In this document: positions 3,983-64,000 of the stretch, in pieces
Numbering within the stretch: position 1 is the stretch's first letter
Layout of the letters: every line of letters begins with the position of its first letter
NCBI GenBank assembly: GCA_013360445.1
Contig: JABWBP010000016.1
Span: forward strand, 56,404 to 120,403
From: Calditrichaceae bacterium
GTDB lineage: Bacteria > Calditrichota > Calditrichia > RBG-13-44-9 > J075
DNA: 64,000 bases
Direction of reading: 5' to 3'
The notes under the pieces: generated by a model
Databases searched by the model: none
Told to the model about the DNA's origin: nothing
Seen by the model: only the letters and a program-made list of their open reading frames with translations
Translations under genes and position numbers: made by a program

Positions 3983-6220
3983 TTATTCCACCACCCGCAA
4001 ATTGGCATATTCGGCGATCAATTTTTTCAATCCCCTGCTCTTGAAGAACACCGAGAGCCTGGTACCGGCGCTGCCACGCTCCACTCCTAAGATTTGCCCT
4101 CGCCCGAATTCTTCGTGGATTACCCAGTCGCCGATTTTGTAATCGGGATGATCCAGCATTTCCGAGGCATACGCGGATACTTCCCGGGGCGACTCCTGGA
4201 AACGAATGCGCTGCTGGCGGGATTTTCGGTGGTGGGAACCGAAATTATCATAGGTCTCTTCGTTTTTGTACTCTTCCGGGATTTCTTCTAAAAATTTGGA
4301 AGAAGTGTTGATGAACGATGCGCCGTAATCGTTTCCGCTGAAGCGCCGCCGCTGCCGCGCCCATACCAGGTAGAGGCGGTCCTTGGCCCGGGTCATGCCC
4401 ACGTAAAAAAGCCGGCGCTCCTCTTCTAAGTCATCCGGGTTGCCGAAGGTGCGGGAGAGCGGGAATAACCCCTGTTCCAGCCCGCAAATAATCACCACCG
4501 GGAATTCCAGCCCCTTGGCGCTGTGCAGGGTCATTAGGGTGACCGCGGAAAAGCTGGGGTCCCAACGGTCCACGTCGGTGAGCAGGGAAACATCCTCTAA
4601 ATATTTTTCCAGGGTCGCCTCCCCGGGAAATTCCCCGGCTGCCGCGCCCCGCGTTTCGGTAAAGCTGGCGATGCTGTTCAGCAACTCATTGATGTTTTCT
4701 AACCGCGCTTCATCATCCGGCAGGCCGCTAAGCTCGTAGGGGCTTCTCAAAGCAAAGGTTTTCAGCACCCCGGCGGCGATTTCAAAGGCGCTGGCTGTGC
4801 TCGACTGCCTGCGGAAATCTTCCAGGGTATTCACGAAAGAACGAATTTTATCCTTGATTCCGGCGGATAAATCGTCGATTGCCGAGACATTCATCAACGC
4901 CTGGTACAGCCCGGTTTGCTGCTCCGCGGCGTACTGCTCCAATTTTTGCTGGGTAGCCATCCCAATGCCCCGGGCGGGGTAATTGATGATCCGCCGCAGC
5001 GCCACGGCGTCGCGAGGGTTGACGATCACCCGCAGGTAGGCCAGCACGTCTTTGATCTCCTTGCGCTCGTAAAAGCGCGTGCCGCCGACAATGACGTAGG
5101 GAATATTGGCCCGGCGCAGCTTGTCTTCTAAGGCGCGCGACTGGGCGTTGGTGCGGTAGAGCAGCGCAATGTCATTATAGGAAAGCTGATTCTTCGCCAT
5201 CTCGCTGCGGATGATATTGGCCGCTTCTAACCCTTCCCCGCCCTCGTCGGCGGCGCCGACCACGCGGATTTTTTCCCCCCCGCTTTTAAGGCTCCAGAGG
5301 TTTTTGCCCAACCGCTTCTGGTTATTGCTGACCACGGAGTTGGCCGCGCTCAGGATAACCTGGGTGGAGCGGTAGTTTTGTTCCAGCCGCACGACTTCGC
5401 AATCCGGATAATCTTTTTCAAAGCTGAGGATATTTTCGATATCCGCACCGCGCCAGCGGTAGATGCTCTGATCCTCATCGCCGACCACGCAGATGTTGCG
5501 GTGTTTCCCGGAGAGCTGCCGCACCAGGTAATACTGCGCTTTGTTGGTGTCCTGGTATTCGTCCACCAGGATATATTTGAATTTGGATTGGTATTTTTCC
5601 AGGATGGCCGGTTCTTTGGTGAACAAATCCAGGGGTTTGATCAGCAGGTCGTCGAAATCGAAAGCGTTATTGCGGCGCAGGGCGGTTTCGTATTCCCAAT
5701 AAATTTTGGCGATCTGCCGCTCCGCCAGGGTGCCGGCGCGGCGTTCGTATTGCTCCGGCCCGAACATTTTATTCTTACAGTCGCTGATGGCGTACTGCGC
5801 CTGGCGGGGTTTGAGGATGCTCTGGTTGATATTCAACCCCTCCATCACCTGCTGGATCTGGCGCAACTGGTCGTCCTGGTCATAAATTGTGAAATTGCTG
5901 TCGTAGCCTAAGTGCGCCCCCTCGATGCGCAGGATTCGAGCGCACACAGAATGAAAGGTGCCGATCCACATCCCCTCGATGGGAAATTGGAGCAGATTTT
6001 CCACCCGGCGCTTCATCTCATTCGCGGCCTTGTTGGTGAAAGTCACCGCTAAAATTTCGTACGGGCGCACGATGCGCTGCTCCAACAGATAACCGATCCG
6101 GTAGGTAAGCACCCGGGTTTTACCGCTGCCTGCCCCGGCCAGGATCAGCAAGGGACCGTTGATATGTTCCACCGCGCTGCGCTGCGCGGGATTGAGATCG
6201 TATAGGAGTTTAGAAGGCAT
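3983..6220 (-). CDS. uvrD: ATP-dependent DNA helicase UvrD/PcrA family
   Basis: Walker A (AGAGSGKTRVLTYRIGYLL). Helicase motifs (ILAVTFTNKAANEMKRR, DEYQDTN, VGDEDQSIYRWRGA, QNYRST). C-terminal UvrD tudor-like tail. Start placed at the internal MPSKLLYDLNPAQRSAV rather than the ORF-track start at 6328. Confidence 0.9.
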   Translation of the reverse strand: MPSKLLYDLNPAQRSAVEHINGPLLILAGAGSGKTRVLTYRIGYLLEQRIVRPYEILAVTFTNKAANEMKRRVENLLQFPIEGMWIGTFHSVCARILRIEGAHLGYDSNFTIYDQDDQLRQIQQVMEGLNINQSILKPRQAQYAISDCKNKMFGPEQYERRAGTLAERQIAKIYWEYETALRRNNAFDFDDLLIKPLDLFTKEPAILEKYQSKFKYILVDEYQDTNKAQYYLVRQLSGKHRNICVVGDEDQSIYRWRGADIENILSFEKDYPDCEVVRLEQNYRSTQVILSAANSVVSNNQKRLGKNLWSLKSGGEKIRVVGAADEGGEGLEAANIIRSEMAKNQLSYNDIALLYRTNAQSRALEDKLRRANIPYVIVGGTRFYERKEIKDVLAYLRVIVNPRDAVALRRIINYPARGIGMATQQKLEQYAAEQQTGLYQALMNVSAIDDLSAGIKDKIRSFVNTLEDFRRQSSTASAFEIAAGVLKTFALRSPYELSGLPDDEARLENINELLNSIASFTETRGAAAGEFPGEATLEKYLEDVSLLTDVDRWDPSFSAVTLMTLHSAKGLEFPVVIICGLEQGLFPLSRTFGNPDDLEEERRLFYVGMTRAKDRLYLVWARQRRRFSGNDYGASFINTSSKFLEEIPEEYKNEETYDNFGSHHRKSRQQRIRFQESPREVSAYASEMLDHPDYKIGDWVIHEEFGRGQILGVERGSAGTRLSVFFKSRGLKKLIAEYANLRVVE

Positions 6221-11881: not shown

Positions 11882-11953
11882 CTGGCGCTCTAAAATCAGT
11901 ACTTTACCTTTCATGCTTTCACATTAAGGCAGGTAAGGTTGTGATGGGGTGAT

Positions 11954-11993
11954 GGAGTATTGGAGTATTGGAGTATTGGAGTATTGGAGTATT
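11954..11993. repeat. Tandem octamer (GGAGTATT)x5
   Basis: Perfect tandem copies between the kinase stop and the regulator start. Confidence 0.9.
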
Positions 11994-12056
11994 GAATGGA
12001 TTGTTAAAGGATTGAAAAATCGGCAGTCTCCCTCAACAAGAGGACTACCGAAAAAC

Positions 12057-12115
12057 CCATTAATCCAGTCATCCATTAATCCATCACTCCATTAATCCAA
12101 CACTACATTAATCCG
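12057..12115. repeat. Interspersed CCATTAATCC / CCAACACT motifs (x4), related to the copy at 23588-23625
   Basis: ACTCCATTAATCCAACACT is shared with 23588-23625. Confidence 0.5.
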
Positions 12116-12828: not shown

Positions 12829-12950
12829 GTAACTATTCAGGTTTTTTGCCACAGAGTTCACAGAGAGCACAGAGATATGGAAAAGTGCGTTAAACAAACC
12901 CCTTTAGTAGAAAAAAATGTTCCATATGACCTCTGTGGCTGAATAGTAAC
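12829..12950. mobile_element. MITE-like element (122 bp) with 12-bp terminal inverted repeats and an 8-bp target-site duplication
   Basis: TIRs are GTAACTATTCAG (12829-12840) and CTGAATAGTAAC (12939-12950), with 1 mismatch. The internal arms CCACAGAG...CCTCTGTGG are also inverted. Flanking direct repeat CCGAAATC at 12821-12828 and 12951-12958. A partial second copy lies at 25724-25771. Confidence 0.5.
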
Positions 12951-23534: not shown

Positions 23535-23587
23535 ATTGTTTGACCGAATACAGATGATGAAGTGACCCCCCTAAGGGGTTTGCAATA

Positions 23588-23625
23588 TCCAACACTCCAA
23601 CAATCCATTACTCCATTAATCCCCT
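23588..23625. repeat. ATCCAACACTCCAACAATCCATTACTCCATTAATCC repeat, same family as 12057-12115
   Basis: Shares ACTCCATTAATCC and CCAACACT with 12057-12115. Lies between the ROK kinase stop and the ABC ATPase start. Confidence 0.4.
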
Positions 23626-23628
23626 ACC

Positions 23629-24498
23629 CTAAACCCCAGCGCCCTCGCTCCCACCCTCCATCGCCAGGGCGATCGCTCCTATCAGCGCGGAGTCGTATCC
23701 CAACCGGCTGAGCCGCACCTGCGGGGCGGGAACGATTTTCAAATGCGCGTGCAGGGTTGCCCGGGCCGGGCGGAGCAGTTTTTCCCCCGCGCCGACGGCC
23801 ACGCCCCCGCCTAATACGATCACCTCCGGGGCATAGAGCGTGGCTAAATTGCGCAATCCCTGGCCAAGGTTATAGCCCACTTCCTCCCACTCCTCTTCCG
23901 TTAGCTTTTCCGCCGGTTTTCCGTAAATGCGCCGGATACCGTTGCCGGAAACCAGCGCCTCCAGACAATCCCGCGCCCCGCACTCGCACTGCACCCGCTC
24001 CGGGCGGGCGCAGCAAAAATGGATCGACTGGTGTCCCGCCTCCTGGTGAACCCCGCCGGCCCCGCGGTAAATTTTCCCGTCGATCAAAAATCCCCCGCCC
24101 ATGCCGGTGCTGAGGGTGAGATACAACAATCGAGAGGCGGTTTCCTTGCCGAATTTGTATTCGCCTAACGCTGCAACGTTGGTATCCACGTCCACGACAA
24201 AATGGCAGCGGAATTGGGTTTCCATAATGTTTTTCAGGGGCACGCTGCGCCATTGGGGCTGGTGCAGGGGAGAAACCACCCCGCTATTATGCTCCAACGG
24301 CCCGCCAATCGCCGCCCCGATGGCAATGATGCGGTTATTCTCCCGGAGCCGCGCCGCCAATTTTTTGAGCAGGCTTAAACCCTCCTGCAGATCGAGGGGC
24401 GTGTCCGCCCGCAAACGCCGCAGGATTTCGCCGCCCTCGTTGGCGGCTGCGGCCATAATTTTGGTTCCCCCAATATCCAGGCCGATGAGAATATTCAT
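23629..24498 (-). CDS. ROK family sugar kinase (glucokinase-like)
   Basis: N-terminal LIGLDIGGTKI ATP-binding motif. ROK zinc motif HxxCxCGxxGCxE (HFCCARPERVQCECGARDCLEA). Confidence 0.8.
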   Translation of the reverse strand: MNILIGLDIGGTKIMAAAANEGGEILRRLRADTPLDLQEGLSLLKKLAARLRENNRIIAIGAAIGGPLEHNSGVVSPLHQPQWRSVPLKNIMETQFRCHFVVDVDTNVAALGEYKFGKETASRLLYLTLSTGMGGGFLIDGKIYRGAGGVHQEAGHQSIHFCCARPERVQCECGARDCLEALVSGNGIRRIYGKPAEKLTEEEWEEVGYNLGQGLRNLATLYAPEVIVLGGGVAVGAGEKLLRPARATLHAHLKIVPAPQVRLSRLGYDSALIGAIALAMEGGSEGAGV

Positions 24499-25723: not shown

Positions 25724-25771
25724 GTAACTATTCAGGCGTTTTGCCACAGAGGCCACAGAGAGCACAGAGAC
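25724..25771. repeat. Partial copy (left arm) of the MITE-like element at 12829-12950
   Basis: GTAACTATTCAGGCGTTTTGCCACAGAGGCCACAGAGAGCACAGAGACAT matches 12829-12877 with few mismatches. No right arm is present. The region 25600-25700 also carries several short hairpins (e.g. ATTCCGG-N6-CCGGAAT). Confidence 0.45.
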
Positions 25772-25852
25772 ATAAAAAAATTCCTAATCAAATCACAAAT
25801 ACAGGGATATAAGGCTCTAAATCGGAATTATGACCACGTATCAACTAATTAA

Positions 25853-27982: not shown

Positions 27983-28004
27983 ATCGTATGAATACCGATG
28001 GCTT

Positions 28005-28160
28005 CGCCGCCATTTGCTGCGCGTCATTCGCTTCGCGTCATTCACTGCGTTGTCATTGATAGTCATTGGAGAAGCACTAAATGACGCCGAAGGCAAATGA
28101 CAATGAATGACAGCGAAGCCCCAACGGGGCAAGCAAATGACGGCGAAGCCAAATACCGCG
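28005..28160. repeat. Palindromic array of GTCATT/AATGAC half-sites with central GCCCCGTTGGGGC hairpin (family shared with 33133-33235 and 52178-52310)
   Basis: Four forward GTCATT and four reverse AATGAC copies at about 12-nt spacing. rc(28080-28160) aligns with 33150-33235. Confidence 0.6.
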
Positions 28161-29910: not shown

Positions 29911-30222
29911 AACCGCATTCCTTTGTTTTGAGCATCTCTCCCAAATAATTCGGTGGTATTATCGACCGGATGCCATACCGCTTAATCGCTGTGAAAAAAT
30001 GTTTGGCGAAATCGCTCAAACATCCTGCCTTAAATGGCATCAATAATACAAAAAGATGCACTTTGAAACAAGGGGGAAAGCGGGAAAAACCGGCAGGGGC
30101 AGATTGATCTTTGAACCACGAATTTCACAAATTTACACGAATGATATTCGCATAATTCGCGGTTTGTTTTTAATCTGCGCCAGGTTGGAAAGAAGTTGGG
30201 TAATAATGCGAATTAAGGTATG

Positions 30223-32135: not shown

Positions 32136-33155
32136 CTACTCCCTCACCCGGCCAATAGGATAAAATTGGTACTGAAACTGCCTTCCAAAATCCAGCAGCG
32201 CCTGCCGGTGATGCGCCTCGATGATGAAAATGATCCCAATACCCAGGTTGAAGGTTTGCCGCATGTCTTCTTCGGGTACGTTCCCGGTTTCCTGAATCAG
32301 TCGGAAGATCGGGGGAACCGGCCAACTCTCCCAATCAATCTCCAGGGAAAGCCCCCCGGGCAGCAGGCGGTTGGTGTTTTTAACGATCCCACCGCCGGTC
32401 ACGTGGGAAATTCCCCGCAGGGGAAAATTCTCCAGCGCTTTGGAGATCACGGAATGGTAATTGGGATGGATTTTCAGCAGCTCGTCGGCCAGGGCAGCGT
32501 TCAGCGCCGGAATGTGGTCGTTCACCCCGTATTCGGCGAAGAGCACCCGCCGCGCCAGGGAATAGCCGTTGGTGTGCAGGCCGTTCCCGGATACTCCAAT
32601 GAGCGCGTCGCCGGGGCGGATGGCGCGGCCATCGATGATTTTCGATTTTTCCACGATCCCCACGATAGTGCCGCACATATCGTATTCGCCGGGCTGGTAG
32701 AGATCCGGCATTTCCGCGGTTTCCCCGCCGATGAGGGGAATGTTGGCGGCTTTGCAGGCCAGGGTAATCCCGGTAATCACCGCTTCATAAATTTCCGGCT
32801 GCAAATGGCCGCTGGCGAAGTAATCCAAAAAAAACAGCGGCGTTGCCCCGCATACCGCCACGTCGTTAGTGCAGTGGTTCACCAGATCCTGTCCCACGGT
32901 ATCGTGGCGGTTTGCCAGAATAGCCACTTTCAGCTTGGTTCCCACCCCGTCGGTAGAGGAGACCAGCACCGGTTCCTGAAAAGACCGCCCGGAGAGATCG
33001 TAAAAACCGCCGAACAAACCCACCCCGGAGAGTACTTCCGGGGTGTAGGTGCGGGCGATGCGCTCCTTCAGGCGTTCCAGGGAGCGTTCCGCTTTCTCGA
33101 TGTCCACTCCGGCGTCTTTGTAGGTTGTTTGTTGCTTCGCGTCATTCATGGTCAT
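32136..33155 (-). CDS. purM: Phosphoribosylformylglycinamidine cyclo-ligase (AIR synthetase)
   Basis: YKDAGVDI N-terminal motif, PurM N and C domains. The start codon lies inside the GTCATT repeat array (MTMND...). Confidence 0.9.
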   Translation of the reverse strand: MTMNDAKQQTTYKDAGVDIEKAERSLERLKERIARTYTPEVLSGVGLFGGFYDLSGRSFQEPVLVSSTDGVGTKLKVAILANRHDTVGQDLVNHCTNDVAVCGATPLFFLDYFASGHLQPEIYEAVITGITLACKAANIPLIGGETAEMPDLYQPGEYDMCGTIVGIVEKSKIIDGRAIRPGDALIGVSGNGLHTNGYSLARRVLFAEYGVNDHIPALNAALADELLKIHPNYHSVISKALENFPLRGISHVTGGGIVKNTNRLLPGGLSLEIDWESWPVPPIFRLIQETGNVPEEDMRQTFNLGIGIIFIIEAHHRQALLDFGRQFQYQFYPIGRVRE

Positions 33156-33235
33156 TCGCTTTCAGCGTCATTTGCCTGCCCCTTTGGGGCTTCGCGTCAT
33201 TCAATTGTCATTTGTCGCCATTCGTGAAATTGGTG
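33133..33235. repeat. GTCATT half-site array with GCCCCTTTGGGGC hairpin (same family as 28005-28160)
   Basis: GCGTCATTTGCCTGCCCCTTTGGGGCTTCGCGTCATTCAATTGTCATTTG aligns to the reverse complement of 28090-28140. Confidence 0.6.
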
Positions 33236-33771
33236 CAATTCGTGGTTGATACCACCAATTGCGCAAGATATGCTTCTCTTACTTCTTCAAAAAACCGCAG
33301 CACCTCCGCTTCGCGGTAGTCCGGGTAAGTCCACTCCTGGGGCCGGAAATGCCCTTTCTGATATTTCAAATGCAGGTCGGCAAAGATACCGCTATCCAGG
33401 TAGATGCGATGGCTGAAATCTTTGGTAGTGGCCAGCACTAATTTCGCTACACAAACATATCCGGGATCGATGTTGATCTGCCGCTTTCCTGCGCGTGAGA
33501 AGCCCTGTTCTAGTTCGTTGGCGGCTAATTTGATATCCGGAAGCTGCTCCGCCGGAATCAGGTCCCGGAAGGAGACCATGCGTTTTTTCAGGTTGTCGCC
33601 CATTTCCGGCAGGTAATAATCGGTGTGGTGAAACTCATACCACTCCATCGCCCGGTCAACCGGCGAATAGAGCTTCTCTAATTTCTCCTGGCAGGCCGGC
33701 CACAACGCCAGGTCCGTAATCGTAATTGCACTGATGAGCTTGACGGGGGGATAGGGTTTGATAAGTCCCAT
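33208..33771 (-). CDS. DUF4416 family protein
   Basis: MGLIKPYPPVKLI N-terminus and about 185 aa length typical of DUF4416. The upstream part of the ORF-track call is probably not coding. Confidence 0.5.
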   Translation of the reverse strand: MGLIKPYPPVKLISAITITDLALWPACQEKLEKLYSPVDRAMEWYEFHHTDYYLPEMGDNLKKRMVSFRDLIPAEQLPDIKLAANELEQGFSRAGKRQINIDPGYVCVAKLVLATTKDFSHRIYLDSGIFADLHLKYQKGHFRPQEWTYPDYREAEVLRFFEEVREAYLAQLVVSTTNCTNFTNGDK

Positions 33772-35811: not shown

Positions 35812-36050
35812 GTTAAACCGGGAGGGTTTAATCCCGACAAATTCACAGGGAAGTGAATGTAGTTGTCGGGAGGGCGGGAGCAGGGGCAGTTGGCAGGAGC
35901 AGGGGCAGGAGCAGGGGCAGGGAGCAGGGGCAGGGAGCAAGAGCAGGGGCAGGGAGAGACCAGGTGAGGAGTTGAAATTGCCTATTGCCTACTGCCACCT
36001 GCCTATTGCCTACTGCCACCTGCCAACTGCCCCTGCTCCTGCCTACTGCT
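35812..36050. repeat. Composite repeat: hairpin CCCGACAA/TTGTCGGG, tandem (GGAGCAGGGGCAG)x6, tandem TGCCTATTGCCTACTGCCACC x2, flanked by 27-bp inverted arms
   Basis: GGGGCAGTTGGCAGGAGCAGGGGCAGG (35883-35909) is the reverse complement of CCTGCCAACTGCCCCTGCTCCTGCC (36020-36044). ORF 35708-36073 is a translation artefact of these repeats. Confidence 0.7.
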
Positions 36051-42619: not shown

Positions 42620-42680
42620 AAAGTGAAACGTGAAGCGTGAAACGTGATTTCACGCTTCACGTTTTACGTTTCACGCCTTA
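42620..42680. terminator. Bidirectional hairpin (AAACGTGAAGCGTGAAACGTGATTTCACGCTTCACGTTT) between convergent genes
   Basis: 17-bp perfect arms. Lies between the stop codons of 40555-42588 (+) and 42686-43618 (-). Member of the CGTGAAACG palindrome family. Confidence 0.55.
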
Positions 42681-44383: not shown

Positions 44384-44500
44384 GCAGTAGGCAGTAGGCA
44401 ATAGGCAGTAACCAGCAGCAGTGGGCAATAAACAGGAGCAAGGTTAAGAGGGTGAAGGTAAAATTGCTTACTGCTTACTGCCTACTCCCTACTCCCTCCG
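44384..44500. repeat. Inverted arms CAGTAGGCAGTAGGCAATAGGCAGTAA ... TTGCTTACTGCTTACTGCCTACTCCCTACTCCC (same family as 35970-36020)
   Basis: GGCAGTAGGCAATAGGCA is the reverse complement of TGCCTATTGCCTACTGCC at 35980-36020. A related GTAGGCGATAGGCAGTTGGCA lies at 51125-51150. Confidence 0.55.
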
Positions 44501-49957: not shown

Positions 49958-49972
49958 AGCTGAAGCGGGAGG

Positions 49973-50037
49973 CGTGAAACGTAAAACGTGATGCGTGAAG
50001 AATTGCGAACGGCGGTTTACGTTTCACGCATCACGTG
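49973..50037. terminator. Bidirectional hairpin ACGTGATGCGTGAA ... TTCACGCATCACGT between convergent genes
   Basis: 14-bp perfect stem. Additional pairing GTGAAACGTAAA/TTTACGTTTCAC. Lies between the stops of the GYD gene (+) and ltaE (-). CGTGAAACG family. Confidence 0.55.
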
Positions 50038-51678: not shown

Positions 51679-52218
51679 TCAACTTTTCAGCACCGCCAGG
51701 GGGCGAACCCGCGCGACCGCCCTGGCAATGCGGAACTGCTGCATCACCCGCAGCACGTTGTCAATATCCTTGAGGGCGTCCGGGGCCTGCTCGCTGATGT
51801 GATCCTTCCCGTAGCGGTAGAGCCGGATGCCGCGTCGTTGCATGGTCGCCTCGCGTTTTTCGTTCAATAGTTGGCGCACGTTCAGGCGGCAGAACAGGGC
51901 CATGTTTTTTGCGCGAATGAGATCGCTCCACAACAGGCCGCCCCGCACCCGGAACAACCGTTTGCCTACCTGAACGGCTTCGGGGTCTTCCGCCCGCCGC
52001 AGCAGGGGGAATTCCTTCCCTTCCGCTTCCCACAGGTTGATGGAAATGCAAATCTCCGCCTCGCCGGGATGGCGCTCCGCTACTAACGGCCGGGCGTGTT
52101 CCGCAATTTGTTCCAGCAGCGGCGCGTGGTTGCAGCGGATTTCTACCCTGGTCTGGTTGGACTCGACGTGGAGGGTAAGGTCATTTATGGTCATTTGCTG
52201 CGCGTCATTTATGGTCAT
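51679..52218 (-). CDS. Hypothetical protein (no recognised family)
   Basis: 179-aa ORF with coding-like composition. The N-terminal MTINDAQQMTIND is derived from the GTCATT repeat array, so the true start is uncertain (possibly 52194). Confidence 0.45.
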   Translation of the reverse strand: MTINDAQQMTINDLTLHVESNQTRVEIRCNHAPLLEQIAEHARPLVAERHPGEAEICISINLWEAEGKEFPLLRRAEDPEAVQVGKRLFRVRGGLLWSDLIRAKNMALFCRLNVRQLLNEKREATMQRRGIRLYRYGKDHISEQAPDALKDIDNVLRVMQQFRIARAVARVRPLAVLKS

Positions 52219-52310
52219 TTGGCTTCGCGGTCATTTATTGTCATTGGTTTCACAGTCATTTGTTGTCATTAGCGTTGCGTCATTGGTGGTCATTGGCTGC
52301 GCGTCATTCT
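52178..52310. repeat. Tandem about 24-bp repeat (TATGGTCATTTGCTGCGCGTCATT-like) x5.5; GTCATT half-site array
   Basis: Eleven GTCATT copies at 11-13 nt spacing. Same half-site family as 28005-28160 and 33133-33235, but without the central GC hairpin. Confidence 0.75.
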
Positions 52311-55899: not shown

Positions 55900-56457
55900 A
55901 TGAAGCGTATGTTTATGGCGTTCACGGTGTTGATGTTCGTAACGGTAAATCTCTGGCTTACTGCGGAAGCCCAGCAGTTGGAGAATTTTTTGAGCAAGAT
56001 CAAGATGGGCGAGTGGATCGAGTTCGAAGGCCCGCCCCAGCCCAATTCTACCATCCTGGTGAATGAGATCAAAGTTCTCCGCGGGGAGATGGAGGATGAC
56101 GACTGGGAAGTAAGCGGCGCGGTCAGCCGGGTAGCCCCGGAAGAGAAAACCATCTATATGCTGAATCTTCCTATCAAATTCGATAATAACACCGAATACG
56201 ACGACCTGGGCGTCATCAAATCCTTCTCGGACATCAAACCGGGCATGACCGTGGAAGTTGATGGTCAATATACCATGGACGGGGTATTTTTAGCCTCGGT
56301 AGTCGAATCCAAGAAATTCAAAGAGGATGAAAAGAATTTTGTCAAATGGATCGGGAAAGTAGAAGGTGTGGAACCGGAAAGCCATTCCATTAATATCCTG
56401 GGCCACGTCATTATCCTCACCCCGGAAACCAAGATCAAATCTTTTCTTCCCGAATGA
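55900..56457 (+). CDS. Secreted hypothetical protein with two OB-fold-like (DUF5666-type) repeats
   Basis: Signal peptide MKRMFMAFTVLMFVTVNLWLTAEA. Two about 70 aa internal repeats (IEFEGPP...VSGAVSRV / VEVDGQY...IGKVEGV). Confidence 0.55.
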   Translation: MKRMFMAFTVLMFVTVNLWLTAEAQQLENFLSKIKMGEWIEFEGPPQPNSTILVNEIKVLRGEMEDDDWEVSGAVSRVAPEEKTIYMLNLPIKFDNNTEYDDLGVIKSFSDIKPGMTVEVDGQYTMDGVFLASVVESKKFKEDEKNFVKWIGKVEGVEPESHSINILGHVIILTPETKIKSFLPE

Positions 56458-56744
56458 TATAGAAATGGTAAAGGATGATGGCTATAAGGGTAAGGGCTGA
56501 GAGGTGGAGAGTAAAAAAGATCTCAGCCTTTCCCTTCATCACTTTCATCCTTAATCCTTAATCCTTAGGACAATCCATATCTAACAGACCTAACAAATTT
56601 TAAGCGATCGAGGTTCTGATGACTCCCCGTTTGGACCGAATCCTTTCTTTTGTTCTGTTGCTCGGATGTCTCACCGGTTATGCCCGGGAGGGGGGGAAGG
56701 AGCACACAGTTTTGGAAGCGTTCGTTCCCCAAAAAACAACCAGT

Positions 56745-56887
56745 ACCTGTAGTGCTAGTTCTACCAACGGACGCCCGATCTAACCGCGAATTGACGCGAA
56801 TAAACACTAATTTCGGCCAGTCTTGATCCTATAGTTATTCGCGTTATTCGCGTGTATTCGCGGTTTAAACCGACTAGCACTACAGGT
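56745..56887. mobile_element. MITE-like element (143 bp) with perfect 15-bp TIRs and 7-bp target-site duplication
   Basis: TIRs are ACCTGTAGTGCTAGT (56745-56759) and ACTAGCACTACAGGT (56873-56887). Flanking direct repeat AACCAGT at 56738-56744 and 56888-56894. Internal ATTCGCG-rich repeats. An inverted homologous copy lies at 63650-63785 and a fragment at 30140-30175. Confidence 0.55.
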
Positions 56888-57664
56888 AACCAGTATGTGT
56901 ACATGGGCGGGGCGGCCGCGGTCGTGGTTTTTTGGGCGCTCGTTTTTCTGTTAAGCGGAGACAATTATTCGAGTGTTTTGACCTCCCGGCGACCTGGTCG
57001 TGAAAGTCAGCGAAACCGGCGAACTGGTAGCCCAGAACCAGGCCACCATCAGCGCCATCAATGACAAGCAGATTCTCAACCTGGCCCCGGAAGGCTCCTG
57101 GGTAGAGCCGGGCGATACGCTGAAGGGCTACGTGGTGGAAAGCGGAGTGGAGCAGGCTCGCCTCGCCTACCTGGAGATGCAGGCGCGCACCCGCTCCCTG
57201 GCTTCGGTAGTGGACGCCCGCGCCGCAGACGTGGAACGCGCCGAAAGTGTGGTAAAGAACAACGAACGCAAGACGTATTTCCGGGAGCGGTTTTCAACGG
57301 AGAGGTGGTGAGCATCGGAACCCTGGCGCGCCCCAAGACCAACCCGGCTACCGGAAAAATCACCAGCACCAAGGTGTTCGACCTCATGATCAAAGTGACC
57401 GAAAACGACAAGCGCCTGAAGCCGGGGCTGAGCGCGACCGTCGATATTATCGTGGACCGCCTGAGCAACGTGGTGTACGTTCCCATCGAGAGCGTGTTTA
57501 CCACCGATAATAATCGCACCTTTGTGTATTTGAGAAAAAAAGGCGACAAGGTGGAGAAACGCCTGGTGGAGATCGGGCGCAGCAACGATCTCCACGTGAA
57601 AATCAACATCGTCATGGGGGCGATTGCCGCCGTCTCGTTGCGGGTGGGGGAATCGGGATCATGA
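56852..57664 (+). pseudogene. Frameshifted/degraded efflux periplasmic adaptor (membrane fusion protein, HlyD/RND-MFP family)
   Basis: MFP-like pieces lie in three different frames: a TM anchor (AAAVVVFWALVFLL, 56852-), a beta-barrel lead (VVKVSETGELVAQNQATISAINDKQILNLAPEGSWVEPGDTLKGYVV, 57000-57311) and a C-terminal segment (KITSTKVFDLMIKVTENDKRLKPGLSATVDIIV, 57305-57664). No intact reading frame. Confidence 0.45.
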
Positions 57665-57935
57665 AAATTATGCTGGCCACGGTTACCGAACGCATGGAAA
57701 AAAATCCAGCCGGAGGGAGAAAAACGCCCCGCCGGGCGGGTGGACCATTGTATGGCCTATGATCCCTACAAAAAACGGCTGCTGCTGTTCGGGGGATGGC
57801 ATAGCGAGTGAAACAAAGTAAGCGCCGGCAATGAAACCGCCGGTGAGAATTTTCGGTACTGGGCGCTGAAACCGCGCATTTCCCCCAAATTTTTTATGGC
57901 GAAGTCATCCCTTTGGGAAAGGCCACGTGGTAGAC

Positions 57936-59099
57936 CTATACCTTTCTGAACTCCGACCGCGGGCTGAAGTACTGTGCCAGGGTTTGGTAGAGCATCCGGT
58001 CGCGCTCTGCTGTCGGCTGACGGAAAATCTCCCGTTTCAGGCGATACAGCTTCCACATGGCTTCGCCTAATTCCTTCATCCAGCGGCGCTGGTATTCGGC
58101 TAAATTTTCCGCGTCCGGCGGCAGCCCGGCGGGCAGAAAATCGCCCAGGAAATTGCCGGCGATTTGTCCGCAGCGCAGGGCGGTATGGATACCCCCGCCG
58201 GTAATGGGATTGACATGCCGGGCGGCGTCGCCCACCAGGATAACATTGTCGGCGTATTGCTGCTTCAGGGGCGCAGCTAAAGGTACGCCGCCGCCCTGCA
58301 CTTCCAACACCCGGGCATCTTTGAGACGTTCCGCCAGAAAGGAATGGCGGATGAAATGCTCCAGATGCCAGCGCGCGTCTTTGCCGGTGAGGGTGCGCGC
58401 CACGCCCAGGCCCACTTCTGCATACCCACGCCCCCGGGGAAAGATCCAGGCATAGCCGCCGGGAGCCCACTCGTGGCCGGTGATGATTTCCAGCAGACCA
58501 TCGGTATCCACCCGGTCCATGACGAATTGCAAACAGGAAGCCAGCTCCGCCAGCCTGATATGAGTGCGCAGGCCGGCCCACTTGCCCACCCGGGATTGCA
58601 GCCCGTCGGCTCCCACGATGACCCGGGCGCGTATCGTGAGTTCCTGCCCGAATTTCTTCATCAGGACATTCGCGGTTCCGTCGCCGTTGGCATGGTATTC
58701 CAACGCCTCGGTTTTCAGCCACACTTCCACCCCCGCTCTTTCCGCCAGGGCGGTCAAATAGCGGTCGAAACGCCGGCGATCCACCACGTAACCTAACGGC
58801 GATCTGTTATATTCCCCGGGCTTCAATGTGCGATAATCCAATGTTTCCGCCGCGCCGTTTGCGTCATAGACTTTGAACCCGTAAATCGGCGTGGCAATGT
58901 ACTCATCATCGGGTTGGACGCCGGTATCGCCGAGGGCGTGGGCGCTCACCGCCCCGGAGCACTGGATGGGCGCGCCTAACTCCTGCTTTTTATCGACTAA
59001 AAGCACCCGCAAGCCTCGTTCCGCAGCAATTCGCGCGGTGGTCGCCCCGGCGGGGCCGGAGCCGATGACTATGACATCGAAATCTGTATTGGGAGACAT
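57936..59099 (-). CDS. Geranylgeranyl reductase family FAD-dependent oxidoreductase (ChlP/BchP-like)
   Basis: FAD dinucleotide fold DVIVIGSGPAGATTA. GGR family blocks (VIVGADGLQSRV, GGYAWIFPRG, ILVGDAARHVNPITGGGI). Confidence 0.85.
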   Translation of the reverse strand: MSPNTDFDVIVIGSGPAGATTARIAAERGLRVLLVDKKQELGAPIQCSGAVSAHALGDTGVQPDDEYIATPIYGFKVYDANGAAETLDYRTLKPGEYNRSPLGYVVDRRRFDRYLTALAERAGVEVWLKTEALEYHANGDGTANVLMKKFGQELTIRARVIVGADGLQSRVGKWAGLRTHIRLAELASCLQFVMDRVDTDGLLEIITGHEWAPGGYAWIFPRGRGYAEVGLGVARTLTGKDARWHLEHFIRHSFLAERLKDARVLEVQGGGVPLAAPLKQQYADNVILVGDAARHVNPITGGGIHTALRCGQIAGNFLGDFLPAGLPPDAENLAEYQRRWMKELGEAMWKLYRLKREIFRQPTAERDRMLYQTLAQYFSPRSEFRKV

Positions 59100-59189
59100 G
59101 GTTTTCTCTCTCTCGAAAAAAATCGCATCGGATAAACAGTTAAAAGCGCCGGCGTAAAAATGGCCGGTGCAAAACTAAAGTTTTGCACT

Positions 59190-60086
59190 CTACGCCGCCA
59201 GGCAGGCTATGGGAAAAAATATGTACTCCGAGAAGAACAGCACCCAAATGAACAGATAATACCGGGCGATCGAGGCGCGGTTGCCCGGGGTGGCCCGCAA
59301 ACTCGCCAGCCACATCATGCCCAGCAAGCCGGCGTGGGTTGCGGCCAATACCGCCCCGTTCACCCCCGGAATGCCGGCAATACCGGCAACGATCAATCCC
59401 AGGTAACAGGCCGCCAAAAGACCCCGCCCGACGTTAAATACCTTCCGCGCTCCCAGGGTGAGGGAGAGGGTCATAATCCTGAAGCGGCTGTCCCCTTCCA
59501 TGTCGGGAATGTCCTTGAACCAGGCGATCACCAGACTGAGGCCGAAAATAAAGGCGGTGAGCGCCCACATTTGCGGAGGGATATCCACCGCGCCGCTGAG
59601 TTGCCGGTTGAAATGCAGAAACAGGAACAGGTTCACCACCACTCCCCGCACCGTAAAGATGCAGGCGGCAGCCCAAAGGTGAAAACGTTTCAGGCGCAGG
59701 GGGGGCAGGGAATAAGCGGTTCCGATGAGCAGGCTGAGGATGACGGTAAGCGTTAAAAAGAACCCTTCGCGAAGCGCGATCAGCAGGGAAATCAGCAAAC
59801 AAACCGCGATAATGGCCTTGCCGGTGCGCAGGGAGTAGGTTCCCGCGGCCAGGGGTAAATGGGGTTTGTTGATGCGGTCGATCTCCACGTCGGTAAGCTG
59901 GTTCAATCCCACGATATAAATATTCGCCCCTAAACAGCTCAACAGCGCGGGGAACAGAATTTCCCATTGCCAGGGGGGAGTTCCGACGTGCGCCCAGGCG
60001 ATTAAATATAAGCCGACCACGCTCAAGGTAGTGCCGATAATAGTATGGGGGCGGGAGAACTGAATAAATGCTTGCAGCCACTTCAT
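59190..60086 (-). CDS. UbiA-family prenyltransferase, homogentisate phytyl/prenyltransferase-like
   Basis: First Asp-rich motif reads NQLTDVEIDRINKPHLPLAAG, the NQxxDxxID variant diagnostic of homogentisate prenyltransferases (cf. Synechocystis Slr1736 / plant VTE2). About 8 TM helices. Start set at MKWLQAF. The upstream ORF extension is repeat-derived. Confidence 0.7.
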   Translation of the reverse strand: MKWLQAFIQFSRPHTIIGTTLSVVGLYLIAWAHVGTPPWQWEILFPALLSCLGANIYIVGLNQLTDVEIDRINKPHLPLAAGTYSLRTGKAIIAVCLLISLLIALREGFFLTLTVILSLLIGTAYSLPPLRLKRFHLWAAACIFTVRGVVVNLFLFLHFNRQLSGAVDIPPQMWALTAFIFGLSLVIAWFKDIPDMEGDSRFRIMTLSLTLGARKVFNVGRGLLAACYLGLIVAGIAGIPGVNGAVLAATHAGLLGMMWLASLRATPGNRASIARYYLFIWVLFFSEYIFFPIACLAA

Positions 60087-60116
60087 CGTATCGCTCTTTA
60101 TTATGAAACTCTTTTC

Positions 60117-60206
60117 GCATAGCGCATGGCGCATGGAGCATAGCGCAGGGGACGGCAGGATATAGGCCATGCGCTCTGCCCTATGCGCTATGCTCCATGC
60201 GCTTTA
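60117..60206. repeat. Hairpin repeat GCGCATGGAGCATAGCGC ... GCGCTATGCTCCATGCGC (family shared with 47192-47265)
   Basis: 18-bp perfect inverted arms separated by about 35 nt. Sits between the prenyltransferase start and the methyltransferase stop. Confidence 0.6.
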
Positions 60207-61038
60207 CCCCTTGCAGCAGCCCAAAACGCACCAGCCCGCTGCGGTAGCCGCGAATCATCAAATTCATGGCCAGGGCCCCGCGGATGGTAGGCCAGCCCGC
60301 GCGGATCAATCCTCGAACGCTTTTGAAACTGAGCGCCGAGCGCGCCACCGCCTTCCAAAACGGGGATACCGCCCGGGTCCAATCGGCAGTGCGGAGATCG
60401 GTAAATCCCGCTTCGGCGGCAAAATTCTGGTACTCCTCGATGGAAACGAGCGGGGGCAAATGATAAACCCGGCAGAGACGCCGCAACAGGCGTTGTTCCG
60501 AGAAAGAGAGCGCCGGGGGCAGGGCGCGGCGGCACCAGGCGGCCATCAGGAATTTGCCGCCGGGGCGGAGCATTTCCATGCCGGCTTGCAAAAAGCGGCG
60601 CTTCTCGGGCATGTGCTCCCCGCTTTCCAGGGACCAGGCCAGGTCGAAGGCGCCGGGGCCAAACGGCGGATGAAGGGCGTCCGCGACGGCGAACTGCGCC
60701 CGCCCGCTCAACCCCGCTGCGGCGGCGCGCTCCCGGGCGCGGTTGGCCTGCACCGGGCTGAGGGTAATCCCCGCCACCCGGGCGTTGAATTTCTGCGCCA
60801 GGTACAGGGAACTGCCGCCAATCCCGCAGCCCAGGTCTAAAATATGCTCCGCCCCGCGGACCTCGCCCCAGCGCAGCAGTTCCTCGATCAGGTCAACCTG
60901 CGCCCGGCGATGGTCGCGTTTTTCGTCGCCATTCGGCCCGTAGTAACCGTGGTGCATGTGCTCTCCCCAGGTTTCTTCCCACAGCGCCGAGGAGACGTCG
61001 TAGAATTGGCGGATGTTGTGGTAGAGTTTTTCGGACAT
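60181..61038 (-). CDS. Gamma-tocopherol methyltransferase-like SAM-dependent methyltransferase (VTE4/Slr0089 family)
   Basis: Collinear conserved blocks: YHNIRQFYDVSSALWEETWGEHMHHGYYGP, ILDLGCGIGGSSLYLAQKF, SPVQANRA, AWSLESGEHMPEK, GLVRFGLL. Confidence 0.8.
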   Translation of the reverse strand: MSEKLYHNIRQFYDVSSALWEETWGEHMHHGYYGPNGDEKRDHRRAQVDLIEELLRWGEVRGAEHILDLGCGIGGSSLYLAQKFNARVAGITLSPVQANRARERAAAAGLSGRAQFAVADALHPPFGPGAFDLAWSLESGEHMPEKRRFLQAGMEMLRPGGKFLMAAWCRRALPPALSFSEQRLLRRLCRVYHLPPLVSIEEYQNFAAEAGFTDLRTADWTRAVSPFWKAVARSALSFKSVRGLIRAGWPTIRGALAMNLMIRGYRSGLVRFGLLQGVKRMEHSA

Positions 61039-61068
61039 GGGGAGTTCCGTGATGGGTGTTTTGTAACC

Positions 61069-61150
61069 CGTAAAACGTAATGCGTAACTTTGGGGAGTAT
61101 TTCGTATTTCGTATTGCGTATTCCGTTTTTGTTACGCATTACGTTTTACG
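61069..61150. terminator. Perfect 20-bp inverted repeat CGTAAAACGTAATGCGTAAC ... GTTACGCATTACGTTTTACG with 42-nt loop
   Basis: Located between the two methyltransferase genes. The loop has CGTATT direct repeats. CGTGAAACG/CGTAAAACG palindrome family. Confidence 0.5.
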
Positions 61151-61170
61151 CAATACGCAGTACGAAACGT

Positions 61171-62130
61171 TTAGATGATCCACCAGGCCAGCAGCGCCAG
61201 GAGCAGGATGGGAATGAGGGCCAGGCTGATCTTTTGTTGAAGAGTCAATGTTTCGACCGATTCAGCTTCCGCAGGAGCGCGTCCGAACAAACCGCGGATG
61301 AAGCGGCGCAGGTAACCGTAAATCGCCATGGGGATGAAAAAGAACCCGGCCAGGGAGCCGATCAGCAGCCGGGGGATGAACAGGAGGATGCGTGTGAAGG
61401 TTGCCGGCTCTTCCCGGCGCTCTTTTTTGACCGCGGGGAGCGGCGCCGGCGAGGGCCCCGGCTGCGTTTTCTTTCCGGCAATGGCGATGCCGTATTTCTC
61501 CCGCAGCACCCAGGAAGGCTTCACATAGCGTTTTTGGATCTCGCTGAAACCGGCCTCGCGAAACCAGCGCTGGTATTCATCTTCTTCCGGGAAGAGCATC
61601 CAGGTATCGGCCAGGAAACGTCCCAGCCGGTTTTGCGGGCGCAGCGGGCCGATCATCAGGGCGACGCCGCCGGGTTTGAGCACCCGGTAGGCTTCGGCAA
61701 TGCCGCGCTGCGGTTCCGGCCAATATTCGATGCTCCCGGCGGAGACGTAGCGGTCGAAATGATCGGTGGGAAAAGGCAGGTCTTCCGCGTCGCCGAGGTG
61801 GAAGGCGCAGCCCTGCAAGTCGTTTTTCGCCTTCGCCCTGGCCATCTGGTGGGGGCTTTGGTCGATGCAGGCGACGTTTTCCGGCGCGATCTGGCGCACA
61901 ATCCCTTGAGTGGTAAATCCGGTGCCGGAACCGACGTCCACCACCCGCAAATCCGGGCGATCCAACTGCGCCAACTCCAGGGACCGCTCCCGCATCGGCC
62001 CGGTCCAGAAAAAGGGATTGACGAAATTATCGTAAAAAATGGAGAGGAAGCGATAGAACCAGTAGGCTTCTTTTTTGTGCTGGACGGTGCGCATGGAGGA
62101 GAAAGAACAAAAGAAACCCGCTATCTGCAA
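61171..62130 (-). CDS. MPBQ/MSBQ (2-methyl-6-prenyl-benzoquinol) methyltransferase-like protein (VTE3/Sll0418 family) with C-terminal membrane anchor
   Basis: Blocks WFYRFLSIFYD, VVDVGSGTGFTT, DQSPHQMARAKAK, GDAEDLPFPTDHFDRYVSAGSIEYWPEPQRGIAEAYRVLKPGG, plus C-terminal hydrophobic helices. Confidence 0.8.
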   Translation of the reverse strand: MQIAGFFCSFSSMRTVQHKKEAYWFYRFLSIFYDNFVNPFFWTGPMRERSLELAQLDRPDLRVVDVGSGTGFTTQGIVRQIAPENVACIDQSPHQMARAKAKNDLQGCAFHLGDAEDLPFPTDHFDRYVSAGSIEYWPEPQRGIAEAYRVLKPGGVALMIGPLRPQNRLGRFLADTWMLFPEEDEYQRWFREAGFSEIQKRYVKPSWVLREKYGIAIAGKKTQPGPSPAPLPAVKKERREEPATFTRILLFIPRLLIGSLAGFFFIPMAIYGYLRRFIRGLFGRAPAEAESVETLTLQQKISLALIPILLLALLAWWII

Positions 62131-62193
62131 TAGAAAAATAAAAAAGGCGCTCCCCTTGGCAGGAAGCGCCCCAAAAAACCTTAACGTCTTTCT

Positions 62194-63507
62194 TTATTTC
62201 ATCTTCGCCTTGCTCTGGTGCACGTAGCCCTCCTTGCCGCCCAACAGTTTAATGCGGTAATATTGGCCTTCCTGGTTGAGCACATTAAAGGAGACGCCCC
62301 CGGGAACCTGCCCGACCACCTCGCTCCCCTCTCGCGGCTCGGCAAAAACGGGAATGCGGTCTGCGCTGCCGCCTTTGATCTCGATCTTTTGCGCCATGGC
62401 AGCCGCCTGAATGGTTTCGCTGATTTCAAAGGAGTGCTCGGCAATCACGATTCCCAATTCGCGCAATGCTTCGGAAAACATGAGATTTTTTTCTACCCGG
62501 GTAAACGCCTTTTTATAATTCTTTTCCTCTTTCAATTGAAGCGCCATTTCATAGAACTCTTTTGCCTGGCCGTAGTTGCCCACCACTTCGTTCAGGATGC
62601 CCATATTGTAGAGAAGTTCGGGATTATAGGGATCCTGGTCGTAGATGCTCTTGTAAAGCACGTATGCGCCGTCGATCTCCAAGCTTTCCGCTTTCTTCGC
62701 CGCGGTTTCTCCTAAGTCTTTGAATTGTTTGAGTTCGATCTTTTCCAATTCATATTCCGAAAGGCTGTAATGAGGGGCCAGGTAGTTGGCAATTTCGGAG
62801 CTTAATTGCTTGAGGCAATCATCTACCATTTGGGCGACCGGGGGCAGGTTGGCGATATTGCTTTCGCATTCCTTCTTTTCTAATGCCCGGGTGGCCTCTT
62901 TACTGCCCAATATTTGCCCGCTTTCCGCGCCAATGATTCGCGCTCTTACGGTAGCGGTGACGCCTCTTTTGCGACAATTGACATAAGTGGTGTACTGTTT
63001 CTTGTCCTTTGTATAAGTTCGCTCTTCCTGGAAATCGTTGTCTTTGTAGGTATAACTGACATTTCCTAAAACCAATGCCTGCACTCCCAGAATTTGTCCC
63101 AGTTGGGCTGCCTGGCTCTGGTTCAATAACCCGCCGGCGCCAAGCTGCTGTTCATCCAGTACCTGCAATAAGCGGCTCCGTTCGATGATGCCGAAGACAT
63201 TGGTAAACGTGCCTTCCTGAAGGGTCTTGCCCTCTTTTTTCTCGCCCATTCCCAGGAAACCGCTTTGCAGATCATAGATTCCCCGGTTCTCTTCCAGGAA
63301 AGCGCCGATCAGGTAGTCCGAAAAATTTCTCCCGTAATTTCCCTCGCCTTCAAAATCCAGCACGGCAATCTGTTTAACGCCGGGCAGAATTTGCTCCGGG
63401 GGATCGATAACGAACACTTTGATCTTTTTGTAAGAATAAACCGGGAAAATCAAAACCAGCAGCAATACCAGGGATACAATCAGTCTGCCTCTTAACAATA
63501 GATTCAT
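62194..63507 (-). CDS. Secreted hypothetical protein (CsgG/LpoB-like alpha-beta N-domain, TPR-like helices, SH3b-like C-terminus)
   Basis: Signal/TM (LIVSLVLLLVLIFPVYS). VKQIAVLDFEGEG motif. TPR-like segment (LLYNMGILNEVVGNYGQAKEFYEMALQL). C-terminal SH3-like GQYYRIKLLGGKEGYV. Confidence 0.45.
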   Translation of the reverse strand: MNLLLRGRLIVSLVLLLVLIFPVYSYKKIKVFVIDPPEQILPGVKQIAVLDFEGEGNYGRNFSDYLIGAFLEENRGIYDLQSGFLGMGEKKEGKTLQEGTFTNVFGIIERSRLLQVLDEQQLGAGGLLNQSQAAQLGQILGVQALVLGNVSYTYKDNDFQEERTYTKDKKQYTTYVNCRKRGVTATVRARIIGAESGQILGSKEATRALEKKECESNIANLPPVAQMVDDCLKQLSSEIANYLAPHYSLSEYELEKIELKQFKDLGETAAKKAESLEIDGAYVLYKSIYDQDPYNPELLYNMGILNEVVGNYGQAKEFYEMALQLKEEKNYKKAFTRVEKNLMFSEALRELGIVIAEHSFEISETIQAAAMAQKIEIKGGSADRIPVFAEPREGSEVVGQVPGGVSFNVLNQEGQYYRIKLLGGKEGYVHQSKAKMK

Positions 63508-63649
63508 GCCTGCACCTCCGAATGTGTTTTGTCAGAAAAATTATAAAGAACCATGCCCACAGGCGGTTTTTGATCGAATTGCACCGGCAAATTATCTTTC
63601 AGGCATTTTTTTCGCAATCATTTTTTAAATTAGACTGAAAAGTCCATCA

Positions 63650-63785
63650 TACGTGATAAATGATTTAAACCGCGGATTAACGCCGATAAACGCGAATGGC
63701 TGTGAGACTGCGACTGACCGGAATTAGCGTTCATTCGCGTCAATTCGCGGTTAGCCTGGAAAGCCGGTGTTAGAACTATCACGAC
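63650..63785. repeat. Inverted, diverged copy of the 56745-56887 MITE-like element
   Basis: rc(63700-63770) aligns to 56778-56830 (CTAACCGCGAATTGACGCGAATRAAC). rc(63650-63700) aligns to 56830-56885. The terminal repeats are degenerate. Confidence 0.5.
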
Positions 63786-63796
63786 AGGTTCATTAT

Positions 63797-64000
63797 GATC
63801 CGCTTCCTCCTTCCGCTTTCCACATTCCCAACAGCCGGTCGATGTCCCCCACCACCTCCAGCCCGGCGTGGCGACCGGTTTCGTCGAATATAATTTCTTG
63901 CCCGGCGGAGAGGCGCACATGCAGCGCCGCGTTCAGGCGCTCTTCGATGCGCCGGTCCATTCCCTTGATGCTTGGCGCGTGGAGCAGGGCGGCGGGGGTT
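63797..64000 (-). CDS. Hypothetical protein (partial; N-terminus beyond window end)
   Basis: Open minus-strand frame ending ...GMDRRIEERLNAALHVRLSAGQEIIFDETGRHAGLEVVGDIDRLLGMWKAEGGSGS* with stop at 63794-63796. No family recognised. Confidence 0.3.

Follow-up and report, generated by a model that had tools for sequence, protein, structure and literature searches.

The window analyzed here is a stretch of 64,000 nucleotides from a Calditrichaceae bacterium, identical to contigs of two NCBI MAGs (GCA_023151135.1 and GCA_026648155.1). Toward its right end lie the remains of an efflux operon, interrupted by an element of 143 bp that we call copy A. To find intact homologs, we conceptually translated the ORF fragments that lie right of copy A and searched with the product. 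Two intact membrane-fusion proteins (MFPs; P0001 and P0002), 395 amino acids long and 92 to 95% identical to the disrupted MFP, sit on short Logan contigs, where the operon has the order TolC-like OEP (499 amino acids), MFP, MacB-like ABC ATPase. When the intact operon is mapped onto the window, what survives of the OEP part is the promoter region and the first 39 codons (56553-56736). This coding remnant, on the plus strand at 56619-56737, includes the signal peptide and lipobox, and its homology to the intact gene stops at 56736. The MFP (MacA/YknX-like) pseudogene follows at 56888-57664 on the same strand.

The operon is heavily decayed. A 1458-nt deletion took the OEP gene together with the first eight MFP codons (the native N terminus reads MKEFFQKHKQ...) and fuses the OEP remnant to MFP codon 8 or 9. 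Further into the MFP gene, deletions have removed 11 nt near 56987, which shifts the frame, roughly 165 nt at 57122 and roughly 220 nt at 57272; the gene has also lost its final 38 nt, and the ABC genes no longer exist at the locus. The 54-, 103- and 118-amino acid 'genes' of public assemblies are thus remnants of an OEP-MFP operon cut by a mobile element, which is useful for annotation. The decayed operon with its element lies in a block of about 6.4 kb, located between a geranylgeranyl reductase gene and a ferredoxin gene (window 56400-63800; 11165-17650 of contig L120), that also contains a DUF5666 gene, a histidine kinase/response regulator pair and an RtcB fragment. This block is absent from the syntenic locus of a sister species, where 55 nt separate the geranylgeranyl reductase gene from the ferredoxin gene (L161, 15509-15563).

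Copy A occupies 56745-56887, or 150 bp when one flanking direct repeat is counted. An earlier reading of the sequence alone (hereafter the sequence-only reading) had proposed perfect 15-bp terminal inverted repeats and a 7-bp target-site duplication, and both are present. The left terminal repeat, ACCTGTAGTGCTAGT, lies at 56745-56759 on the plus strand and, with the T that follows it, reads AC(N)6T(N)5TT. The right terminal repeat, on the minus strand at 56873-56887 (ACTAGCACTACAGGT on the plus strand), is its exact reverse complement (15 of 15 positions). AACCAGT directly abuts both ends, at 56738-56744 and 56888-56894, with all seven positions matching. The ends can also be parsed as a 16-bp repeat with a 5-bp duplication; we prefer 15 plus 7 because the extra T/A is missing both in the second copy and in a related metagenomic element, described below. 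Between the terminal repeats lie a left subterminal spacer of 22 nt (56760-56781, plus strand; partly conserved in the second copy), an inner hairpin of 84 bp (56782-56865, from AACCGCGAAT to ATTCGCGGTT) and a right subterminal spacer of 7 nt (56866-56872, plus strand).

The interior is as rich in heptamers as had been claimed. Each arm of the inner hairpin (56782-56811 and 56834-56865) holds three of them at a spacing of 9 to 10 nt: CGCGAAT, CGCGAAT and CACTAAT on the left, 10 nt apart at 56785, 56795 and 56805, and ATTCGCG three times on the right, at 56837, 56846 and 56856. The facing heptamers form an inner inverted repeat of 22 nt that is 91% complementary, and the whole of copy A is predicted to fold as one long hairpin on either strand (-57.4 and -63.1 kcal/mol; z = -8.0 and -7.0 against dinucleotide shuffles). 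Coding content is limited to mechanical ORFs of 54 to 80 amino acids that enter from the flanks in the ORF list. Matches to the 15-mer with up to three mismatches number three in the window, with 0.21 expected. Perfect inverted arms of at least 15 nt within 400 nt arose in 3 of 100 Markov-shuffled windows, none of them longer than 15, and the adjoining 7-bp repeat contributes a further chance factor of about 6e-5 (4^-7, our own arithmetic). A chance origin of the repeats and the flanking duplication is excluded.

The sequence-only reading had placed the insertion at the 5' end of a decayed efflux gene, and the intact homologs bear this out. In their DNA (L126 to L128), the 7-mer occurs once only, as AAACAGT, and the 143 bp are absent. 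The intact MFP gene reads ...CACAAACAGTATGTGTA... (over a longer stretch, ATGAAAGAGTTTTTTCAGAAACACAAACAGTATGTGTA...), and the window reads ...ACAACCAGT, the 143 bp, and then AACCAGTATGTGTA.... The element-derived codons are thus foreign to the intact genes. Because the window has two 7-mers and an additional 143 bp where the intact gene has one 7-mer, AACCAGT is a true target-site duplication. It corresponds to MFP codons K9 and Q10 and the first base of Y11, and the right copy still represents these bases in the pseudogene. In the frame of the MFP gene, translation would enter the element as Y-L and stop at a TAG two codons in. One Logan contig that appeared to carry a long intact ORF through the site (L122, SRR25608318_2829) was rejected as an assembly chimera with a P-type ATPase gene; at 4070-4535 of this contig, the MFP remnant changes to the P-type ATPase gene at about window position 57030.

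Two further suggestions about this gene hold in part. The N-terminal coding frame of the pseudogene had been said to begin inside the element, and an ORF at 56852-57064 does start there as a frame. It is a mechanical GTG-to-stop ORF, opening at the first GTG after a stop and running into the transmembrane helix, and the native start lay upstream. As for insertional disruption, copy A does interrupt MFP codons 9 to 11, but an inactivating role is not demonstrable in a gene with at least four further deletions.

The diverged inverted copy that had been reported at 63650-63785 is confirmed as a second family member, copy B, at 63653-63789 on the minus strand. It is about 75% identical to copy A (75% over 106 ungapped nucleotides) and lies 3 nt past the stop codon of a tocopherol cyclase gene. 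Its left repeat, ACCTGTCGTGATAGT, is the third of the 15-mer matches counted in the window and agrees at 13 of 15 positions; the right repeat is eroded (about 9 to 10 of 15). All 10 contigs that bear the exact neighboring gene also carry copy B. We reached the syntenic locus of a sister species through a member of the ≥90%-identity cluster of that neighboring gene. At this locus (L161, GCA_964522165.1; about 88% nucleotide identity), the roughly 137 bp of copy B are absent: the intergenic region runs ...GATGATAA directly into ACGATGAA..., with nothing between. The source region reads ...CATAATGA, the element from ACCTGTCGTG to TTTATCACGT, and ATGATGGA.... Since it is missing from the syntenic locus, copy B is an insertion too, and its left breakpoint coincides exactly with base 1 of the repeat. 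No duplication is recoverable at the locus, where the right repeat is short by its last 5 to 6 nt; the lengths would fit a later loss of 12 nt comprising the repeat tip and the right duplication copy. Copy B is the older insertion of the two. Loci reached through CsgG-like proteins of 77 and 63% identity were rejected as empty sites for copy B, as they are not syntenic.

The surroundings of copy B may be unusual in their own right. A CsgG/SH3 lipoprotein gene is inserted in an apparently complete tocopherol cluster (window 57936-64000 and beyond; L129, 8702-15572) that comprises a cyclase (PF14249), UbiE-type and CMAS/gamma-TMT-like SAM methyltransferases, a UbiA prenyltransferase and a geranylgeranyl reductase, and that is kept in the sister species. 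To our knowledge, Calditrichia are non-phototrophic, and such a cluster would be unusual there. Perfect inverted repeats of 19 and 20 nt lie in gene gaps of the cluster (60129-60202 and 61069-61150) and may be terminators or further hairpin repeats.

Across the roughly 81 kb of source contig covered, the family has two copies. No further members were found in 21 kb of the sister species, nor in the 9.5 kb to the right and 7 kb to the left of the window, and the 81 kb made up of the window and its contig extensions contain no transposase gene or full-length insertion sequence with these repeats. A protein search with the conceptual translation of the element, aimed at spurious ORFs over other copies, returned no candidates. 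A scan of metagenome contigs for the terminal repeat together with AACCGCGAAT gave no match in a collection that evidently lacks some JGI contigs, since copy B is carried by a JGI contig (L134). A second scan of metagenome contigs, for both terminal repeats 100 to 130 nt apart, gave one match: an element of 132 bp at 1270-1401 of L140 (JFBN01307333.1), bounded by ACCTGTTGTGCTAGT, between a 5-formyl-THF cyclo-ligase gene and secD. Its repeats agree at 15 of 15 positions with each other and at 14 of 15 with copy A. Its interior is AT-rich, palindromic and unrelated to that of copy A. What is conserved as the functional end is thus the terminal repeat and not the interior. L140 looks Firmicute-like in its base composition and genes. 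Beyond the L140 element, at a distance of 13 nt (region 1270-1429), there is a third and degenerate repeat of the right-end type, ACTGGTACAACAGGT, which suggests tandem or nested insertions there.

Reproduction of the ends and of the duplication therefore has to be judged separately. The terminal repeat is seen again both in copy B and in the unrelated metagenomic element. The duplication is clean in copy A only, where it is a perfect 7 bp verified by the empty site; copy B has none that is recoverable, and the 7-nt flanks of the L140 element, CAATACT and CAATAAT, match at five of seven positions.

Calditrichota are usually placed in the FCB superphylum. The IS982 family is present in the FCB group and in Firmicutes, and an alignment of 69 of its elements gives the inverted-repeat positions 5'-AC(N)6T(N)5TT-3' (Fayad et al. 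2020, PMC7335449). Inverted repeats in this family range from 11 to 32 bp and direct repeats from 2 to 10 bp, with 7 bp in IS1187 of Bacteroides (PMC7335449). The end ACCTGTAGTGCTAGTT satisfies every specified position of this signature. Three ends carry the full signature, namely the left ones of copies A and B and the right one of L140, and two others (copy A, right; L140, left) deviate from it at position 16 only. Because the terminal repeat fits this five-position signature, an IS982-type DDE transposase is the most likely mobilizer of the element. Copy A resembles IS982 elements in that its ends begin with AC, its left end carries the complete signature, and its repeat length of 15 and duplication of 7 fall within the family's range. 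It differs in having no transposase gene, in its length of 143 bp rather than about 1 kb, and in a right end with TC, not TT, at positions 15 and 16.

The inner 84 bp of copy A have a much wider distribution than its ends. They belong to a class of hairpins, here called decamer-arm hairpins, that we define as inverted pairs of arms, each with at least two C[GA]CN[GA]AT heptamers at a spacing of 9 to 11 nt. The 10-nt units of the class read NNACGCGAAT, with the variants CACGAAT, CGCTAAT and CGCCAAT, and two to four of them are usually followed by a loop and an inverted arm. The inner hairpin of copy A (56782-56865) has such 10-nt-phased heptamers, starts with AACC and ends with GGTT. We scanned one genome per species for the motif AACCGCGAATNNACGCGAAT, which matched in at least 119 stretches, compared with about 17 expected by chance (our own arithmetic; many loci hold several matches). 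The matches listed are mostly from Verrucomicrobiota, and also come from Planctomycetota, Kiritimatiellia, Chloroflexota, Nitrospirota, Acidobacteriota, several Proteobacteria and one Methanothrix bin. The motif was also found in 19 stretches of viral contigs. A profile built from copies A and B matches dozens of loci in other genomes only over positions ~35 to 125, that is, the inner hairpin, and among the matches listed no AACCGCGAATNNACGCGAAT locus of another genome has the terminal repeat of copy A.

Some of these hairpins are associated with a particular gene. Among the matches listed, the loops of 93 arm pairs range from 8 to 460 nt, and each of the six longest (370 to 460 nt) encloses a GxxExxY gene; two of the six were confirmed against TIGR04256 (E = 3e-38 and 3e-43). 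Conversely, the fetched loci contain 15 GxxExxY matches, 10 of them flanked by arms left and right and another 4 by arms on one side. Examples of arm-bracketed loci are L013 (85-599), L032 (2154-2594), L072 (1311-1774), L078 (3045-3565), L080 (2808-3232) and L107 (3629-4093). The bracketed ORF starts inside the upstream arm (MNANERE..., NREWTRM...), and the short-loop hairpins look like empty derivatives of the long-loop versions. One study lists the PDDEXK_3 family (PD-(D/E)XK) as functionally unknown and notes 'multiple transfers, mixed clades' (PMC3424549). We found no description of the decamer arms in the searchable literature, including that on GxxExxY, PDDEXK_3 and TIGR04256, nor are they in Rfam; the class appears to be undescribed.

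The class also accounts for a supposed family fragment at 30140-30175. This is a separate, stand-alone decamer-arm hairpin of 51 nt (30114-30164) with CACGAAT/ATTCGCG units, without the terminal repeat or a match to the family profile. Other identities for the hairpins were considered and rejected. As an integron attC site, ATCTAAC fits R'', but its partner GTTTAAA fails GTTRRRY, and the pairing ends at AACC/GGTT; the attC-like same-strand 'arrays' in L024 are single arms and not hairpins. CsrA-binding arms, which would carry GGA, were rejected because the element's own units read TGA/AAA.

Transposon ends are not a general trait of the class. In the 70-nt flanks of about 100 hairpins, the length distribution of the best outer inverted repeat equals that of a mismatched-flank control; the longer outer repeats are mostly further arm units, and we rejected outer repeats as a property of these hairpins apart from a few cases. 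Two cases, both checked by eye, stand out. In a Planctomycetota MAG, a hairpin at 1157-1284 of L033 is bounded by 14-bp repeats GTAACCGTTCAGTC and an 8-bp duplication CTAATTTT, and in a Holophaga MAG, one at 1453-1730 of L020 is bounded by 15-bp repeats TCCCGATTATCGGCC and a 6-bp duplication AAGGGA. Both elements are MITE-like, with repeats unrelated to those of copy A. Including copy A, three unrelated transposon ends are found on the same kind of hairpin in three phyla, with duplications of 6, 7 and 8 bp. Several reasons for this repeated wrapping are possible. A stable foldback may help a two-ended mini-element to transpose; such hairpins may merely be the commonest palindromes available; or a hairpin element may insert into palindromic centers. 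We tentatively entertain a broader model, possible but still the less probable outcome, in which the arms together with the GxxExxY nuclease are a selfish unit that spreads horizontally and whose hairpin is repeatedly packaged between unrelated transposon ends, thereby creating MITEs.

Copy A is very probably a non-autonomous, MITE-type DNA transposon of 143 bp, with 15-bp terminal repeats and no coding capacity. This reading is supported by the empty sites of both copies and by the independent occurrence of the terminal repeat in L140. A DDE transposase encoded elsewhere in the genome would bind both repeats, excise or copy the element, and insert it via a 7-bp staggered cut, the repair of which would yield the AACCAGT duplication. 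Copy A landed in the MFP gene, at codons 9 to 11, of an efflux operon of the OEP-MFP-ABC (MacAB-TolC-like) type. Its body, a very stable hairpin either borrowed from the cross-phylum decamer-arm class or common to it, would bring the ends together but is not what defines the termini. Several points count against this account: the 81 kb yielded two copies, no transposase and no full-length insertion sequence with these repeats; copy B has an eroded right end and no recoverable duplication; the L140 flanks agree at five of seven positions; neither the protein search nor the first metagenome scan turned up further copies; the IS982 link draws on a signature of five positions; and the left breakpoint of the 1458-nt deletion lies, by a striking coincidence, 1 to 2 nt to the left of the left duplication copy. 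Copy A could instead be a plain decamer-arm hairpin that moves by the mechanism of that class, its outer repeat being an extension of the stem, as the match of the inner 84 bp to the class in dozens of genomes and the folding of the whole element into one long hairpin would allow. We consider this quite improbable: about 100 other hairpins of the class have neither an outer repeat above the control nor a flanking repeat, the terminal repeat also delimits the L140 element, which has no such hairpin, and both empty-site breakpoints fall at the terminal repeat and not at the AACC/GGTT ends of the stem.

A question of origin is whether the element was assembled by nesting, with a generic hairpin entering a pair of repeats of about 59 bp, or with repeats gained around a resident hairpin. 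Such a history is compatible with later behavior as a MITE, and the L033 and L020 hairpins, wrapped by unrelated repeats and duplications in other phyla, speak for it. Since copies A and B share the whole composite, any nesting would predate their split. We nevertheless regard it as rather unlikely, because no hairpin-less repeat pair was seen in the roughly 81 kb of the source genome, and generic hairpins bear neither a duplication nor any other trace of having inserted. That the sequence is a structured RNA or regulatory hairpin native to the efflux operon, or a palindrome arisen by chance, is barely credible despite the strong predicted fold. The element breaks the ORF, adds a stop codon and is missing from the intact homologs, so that the empty site refutes a native role; a second copy lies at an unrelated site, and the statistics given above dispose of chance. 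Rfam covariance models, moreover, gave no match in the window at the gathering threshold and none on the element even at E ≤ 10.

As a MITE, copy A can be set beside several known systems. Bacterial MITEs have been reviewed by Delihas 2008 (PMC2229807). Like Correia/NEMIS, RUP and MITEAba12, copy A is small, has terminal repeats, a duplication and a foldback, has no ORF, and lies in or near genes. The duplication is TA for Correia and RUP and 9 bp long for MITEAba12. Copy A differs from all of these in its repeat sequence, its 7-bp duplication and the low copy number seen, and in having a cross-phylum module as its core instead of sequence derived from a parent insertion sequence. REPs are species-specific units of 20 to 40 nt that are recognized by a Y1 (HUH) RAYT transposase and make no duplication. 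The hairpin class recalls the REP/REPIN-RAYT arrangement in that inverted arms flank a small gene with a nuclease fold and 'empty' hairpins are intergenic. Unlike REPINs, the arms of the class are 10-nt tandem units shared across phyla that bracket a PD-(D/E)XK GxxExxY gene, and copy A has classic terminal repeats and a duplication. The arm-GxxExxY layout also recalls the stems of rRNA intervening sequences. Rickettsia palindromic elements are palindromic and lie inside coding regions. Copy A is likewise a palindrome in a gene, and with its duplication measures 150 bp, a multiple of three; however, it meets a TAG two codons in and is therefore not translated through.

In itself, copy A is an ordinary, textbook-type case of a MITE inserted in what is now a pseudogene, in an uncultured member of the Calditrichia. 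We know of no IS982-type MITE described in Calditrichota, and our analysis likely adds one to this phylum. The wider value lies in the core: a motif specified at 18 bases that occurs in well over 100 places over many phyla and brackets GxxExxY genes of unknown function. If the pairing of arms and GxxExxY genes reflects a mechanism of mobility or processing, it would provide a first clue to the function of an orphan gene family that is very common.

The window holds other repeats as well. An ORF at 2889-3956 on the minus strand contains an in-frame 12-nt tandem repeat (3073-3168) that encodes (KGIE)n near its C-terminal third; it has no Pfam match in the precomputed table, and its N terminus resembles what we take to be the Rpn/YhgA-like nuclease (putative transposase) family. 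Two copies of a 56-nt repeat with CACAGAG heptamers, 88% identical, lie at 12829-12884 and 25724-25779. Short-period intergenic tandem repeats (8-mers, heptamers, and GGCAGG-type and GTGAAAC-type inverted pairs), in the same periodic-heptamer style as the core of the MITE, are found at 11937-11992, 12047-12114, 23579-23630, 35876-36049, 42624-42678, 44384-44408, 49961-49999 and 56553-56566. Finally, a GTCATT/AATGAC repeat family with a spacing of about 10 nt occurs at 27990-28160, 33140-33250 and 52180-52308; it includes 61-nt inverted copies, 77% identical and 5 kb apart, and a single CACGAAT-type arm abuts it at 33220-33247.
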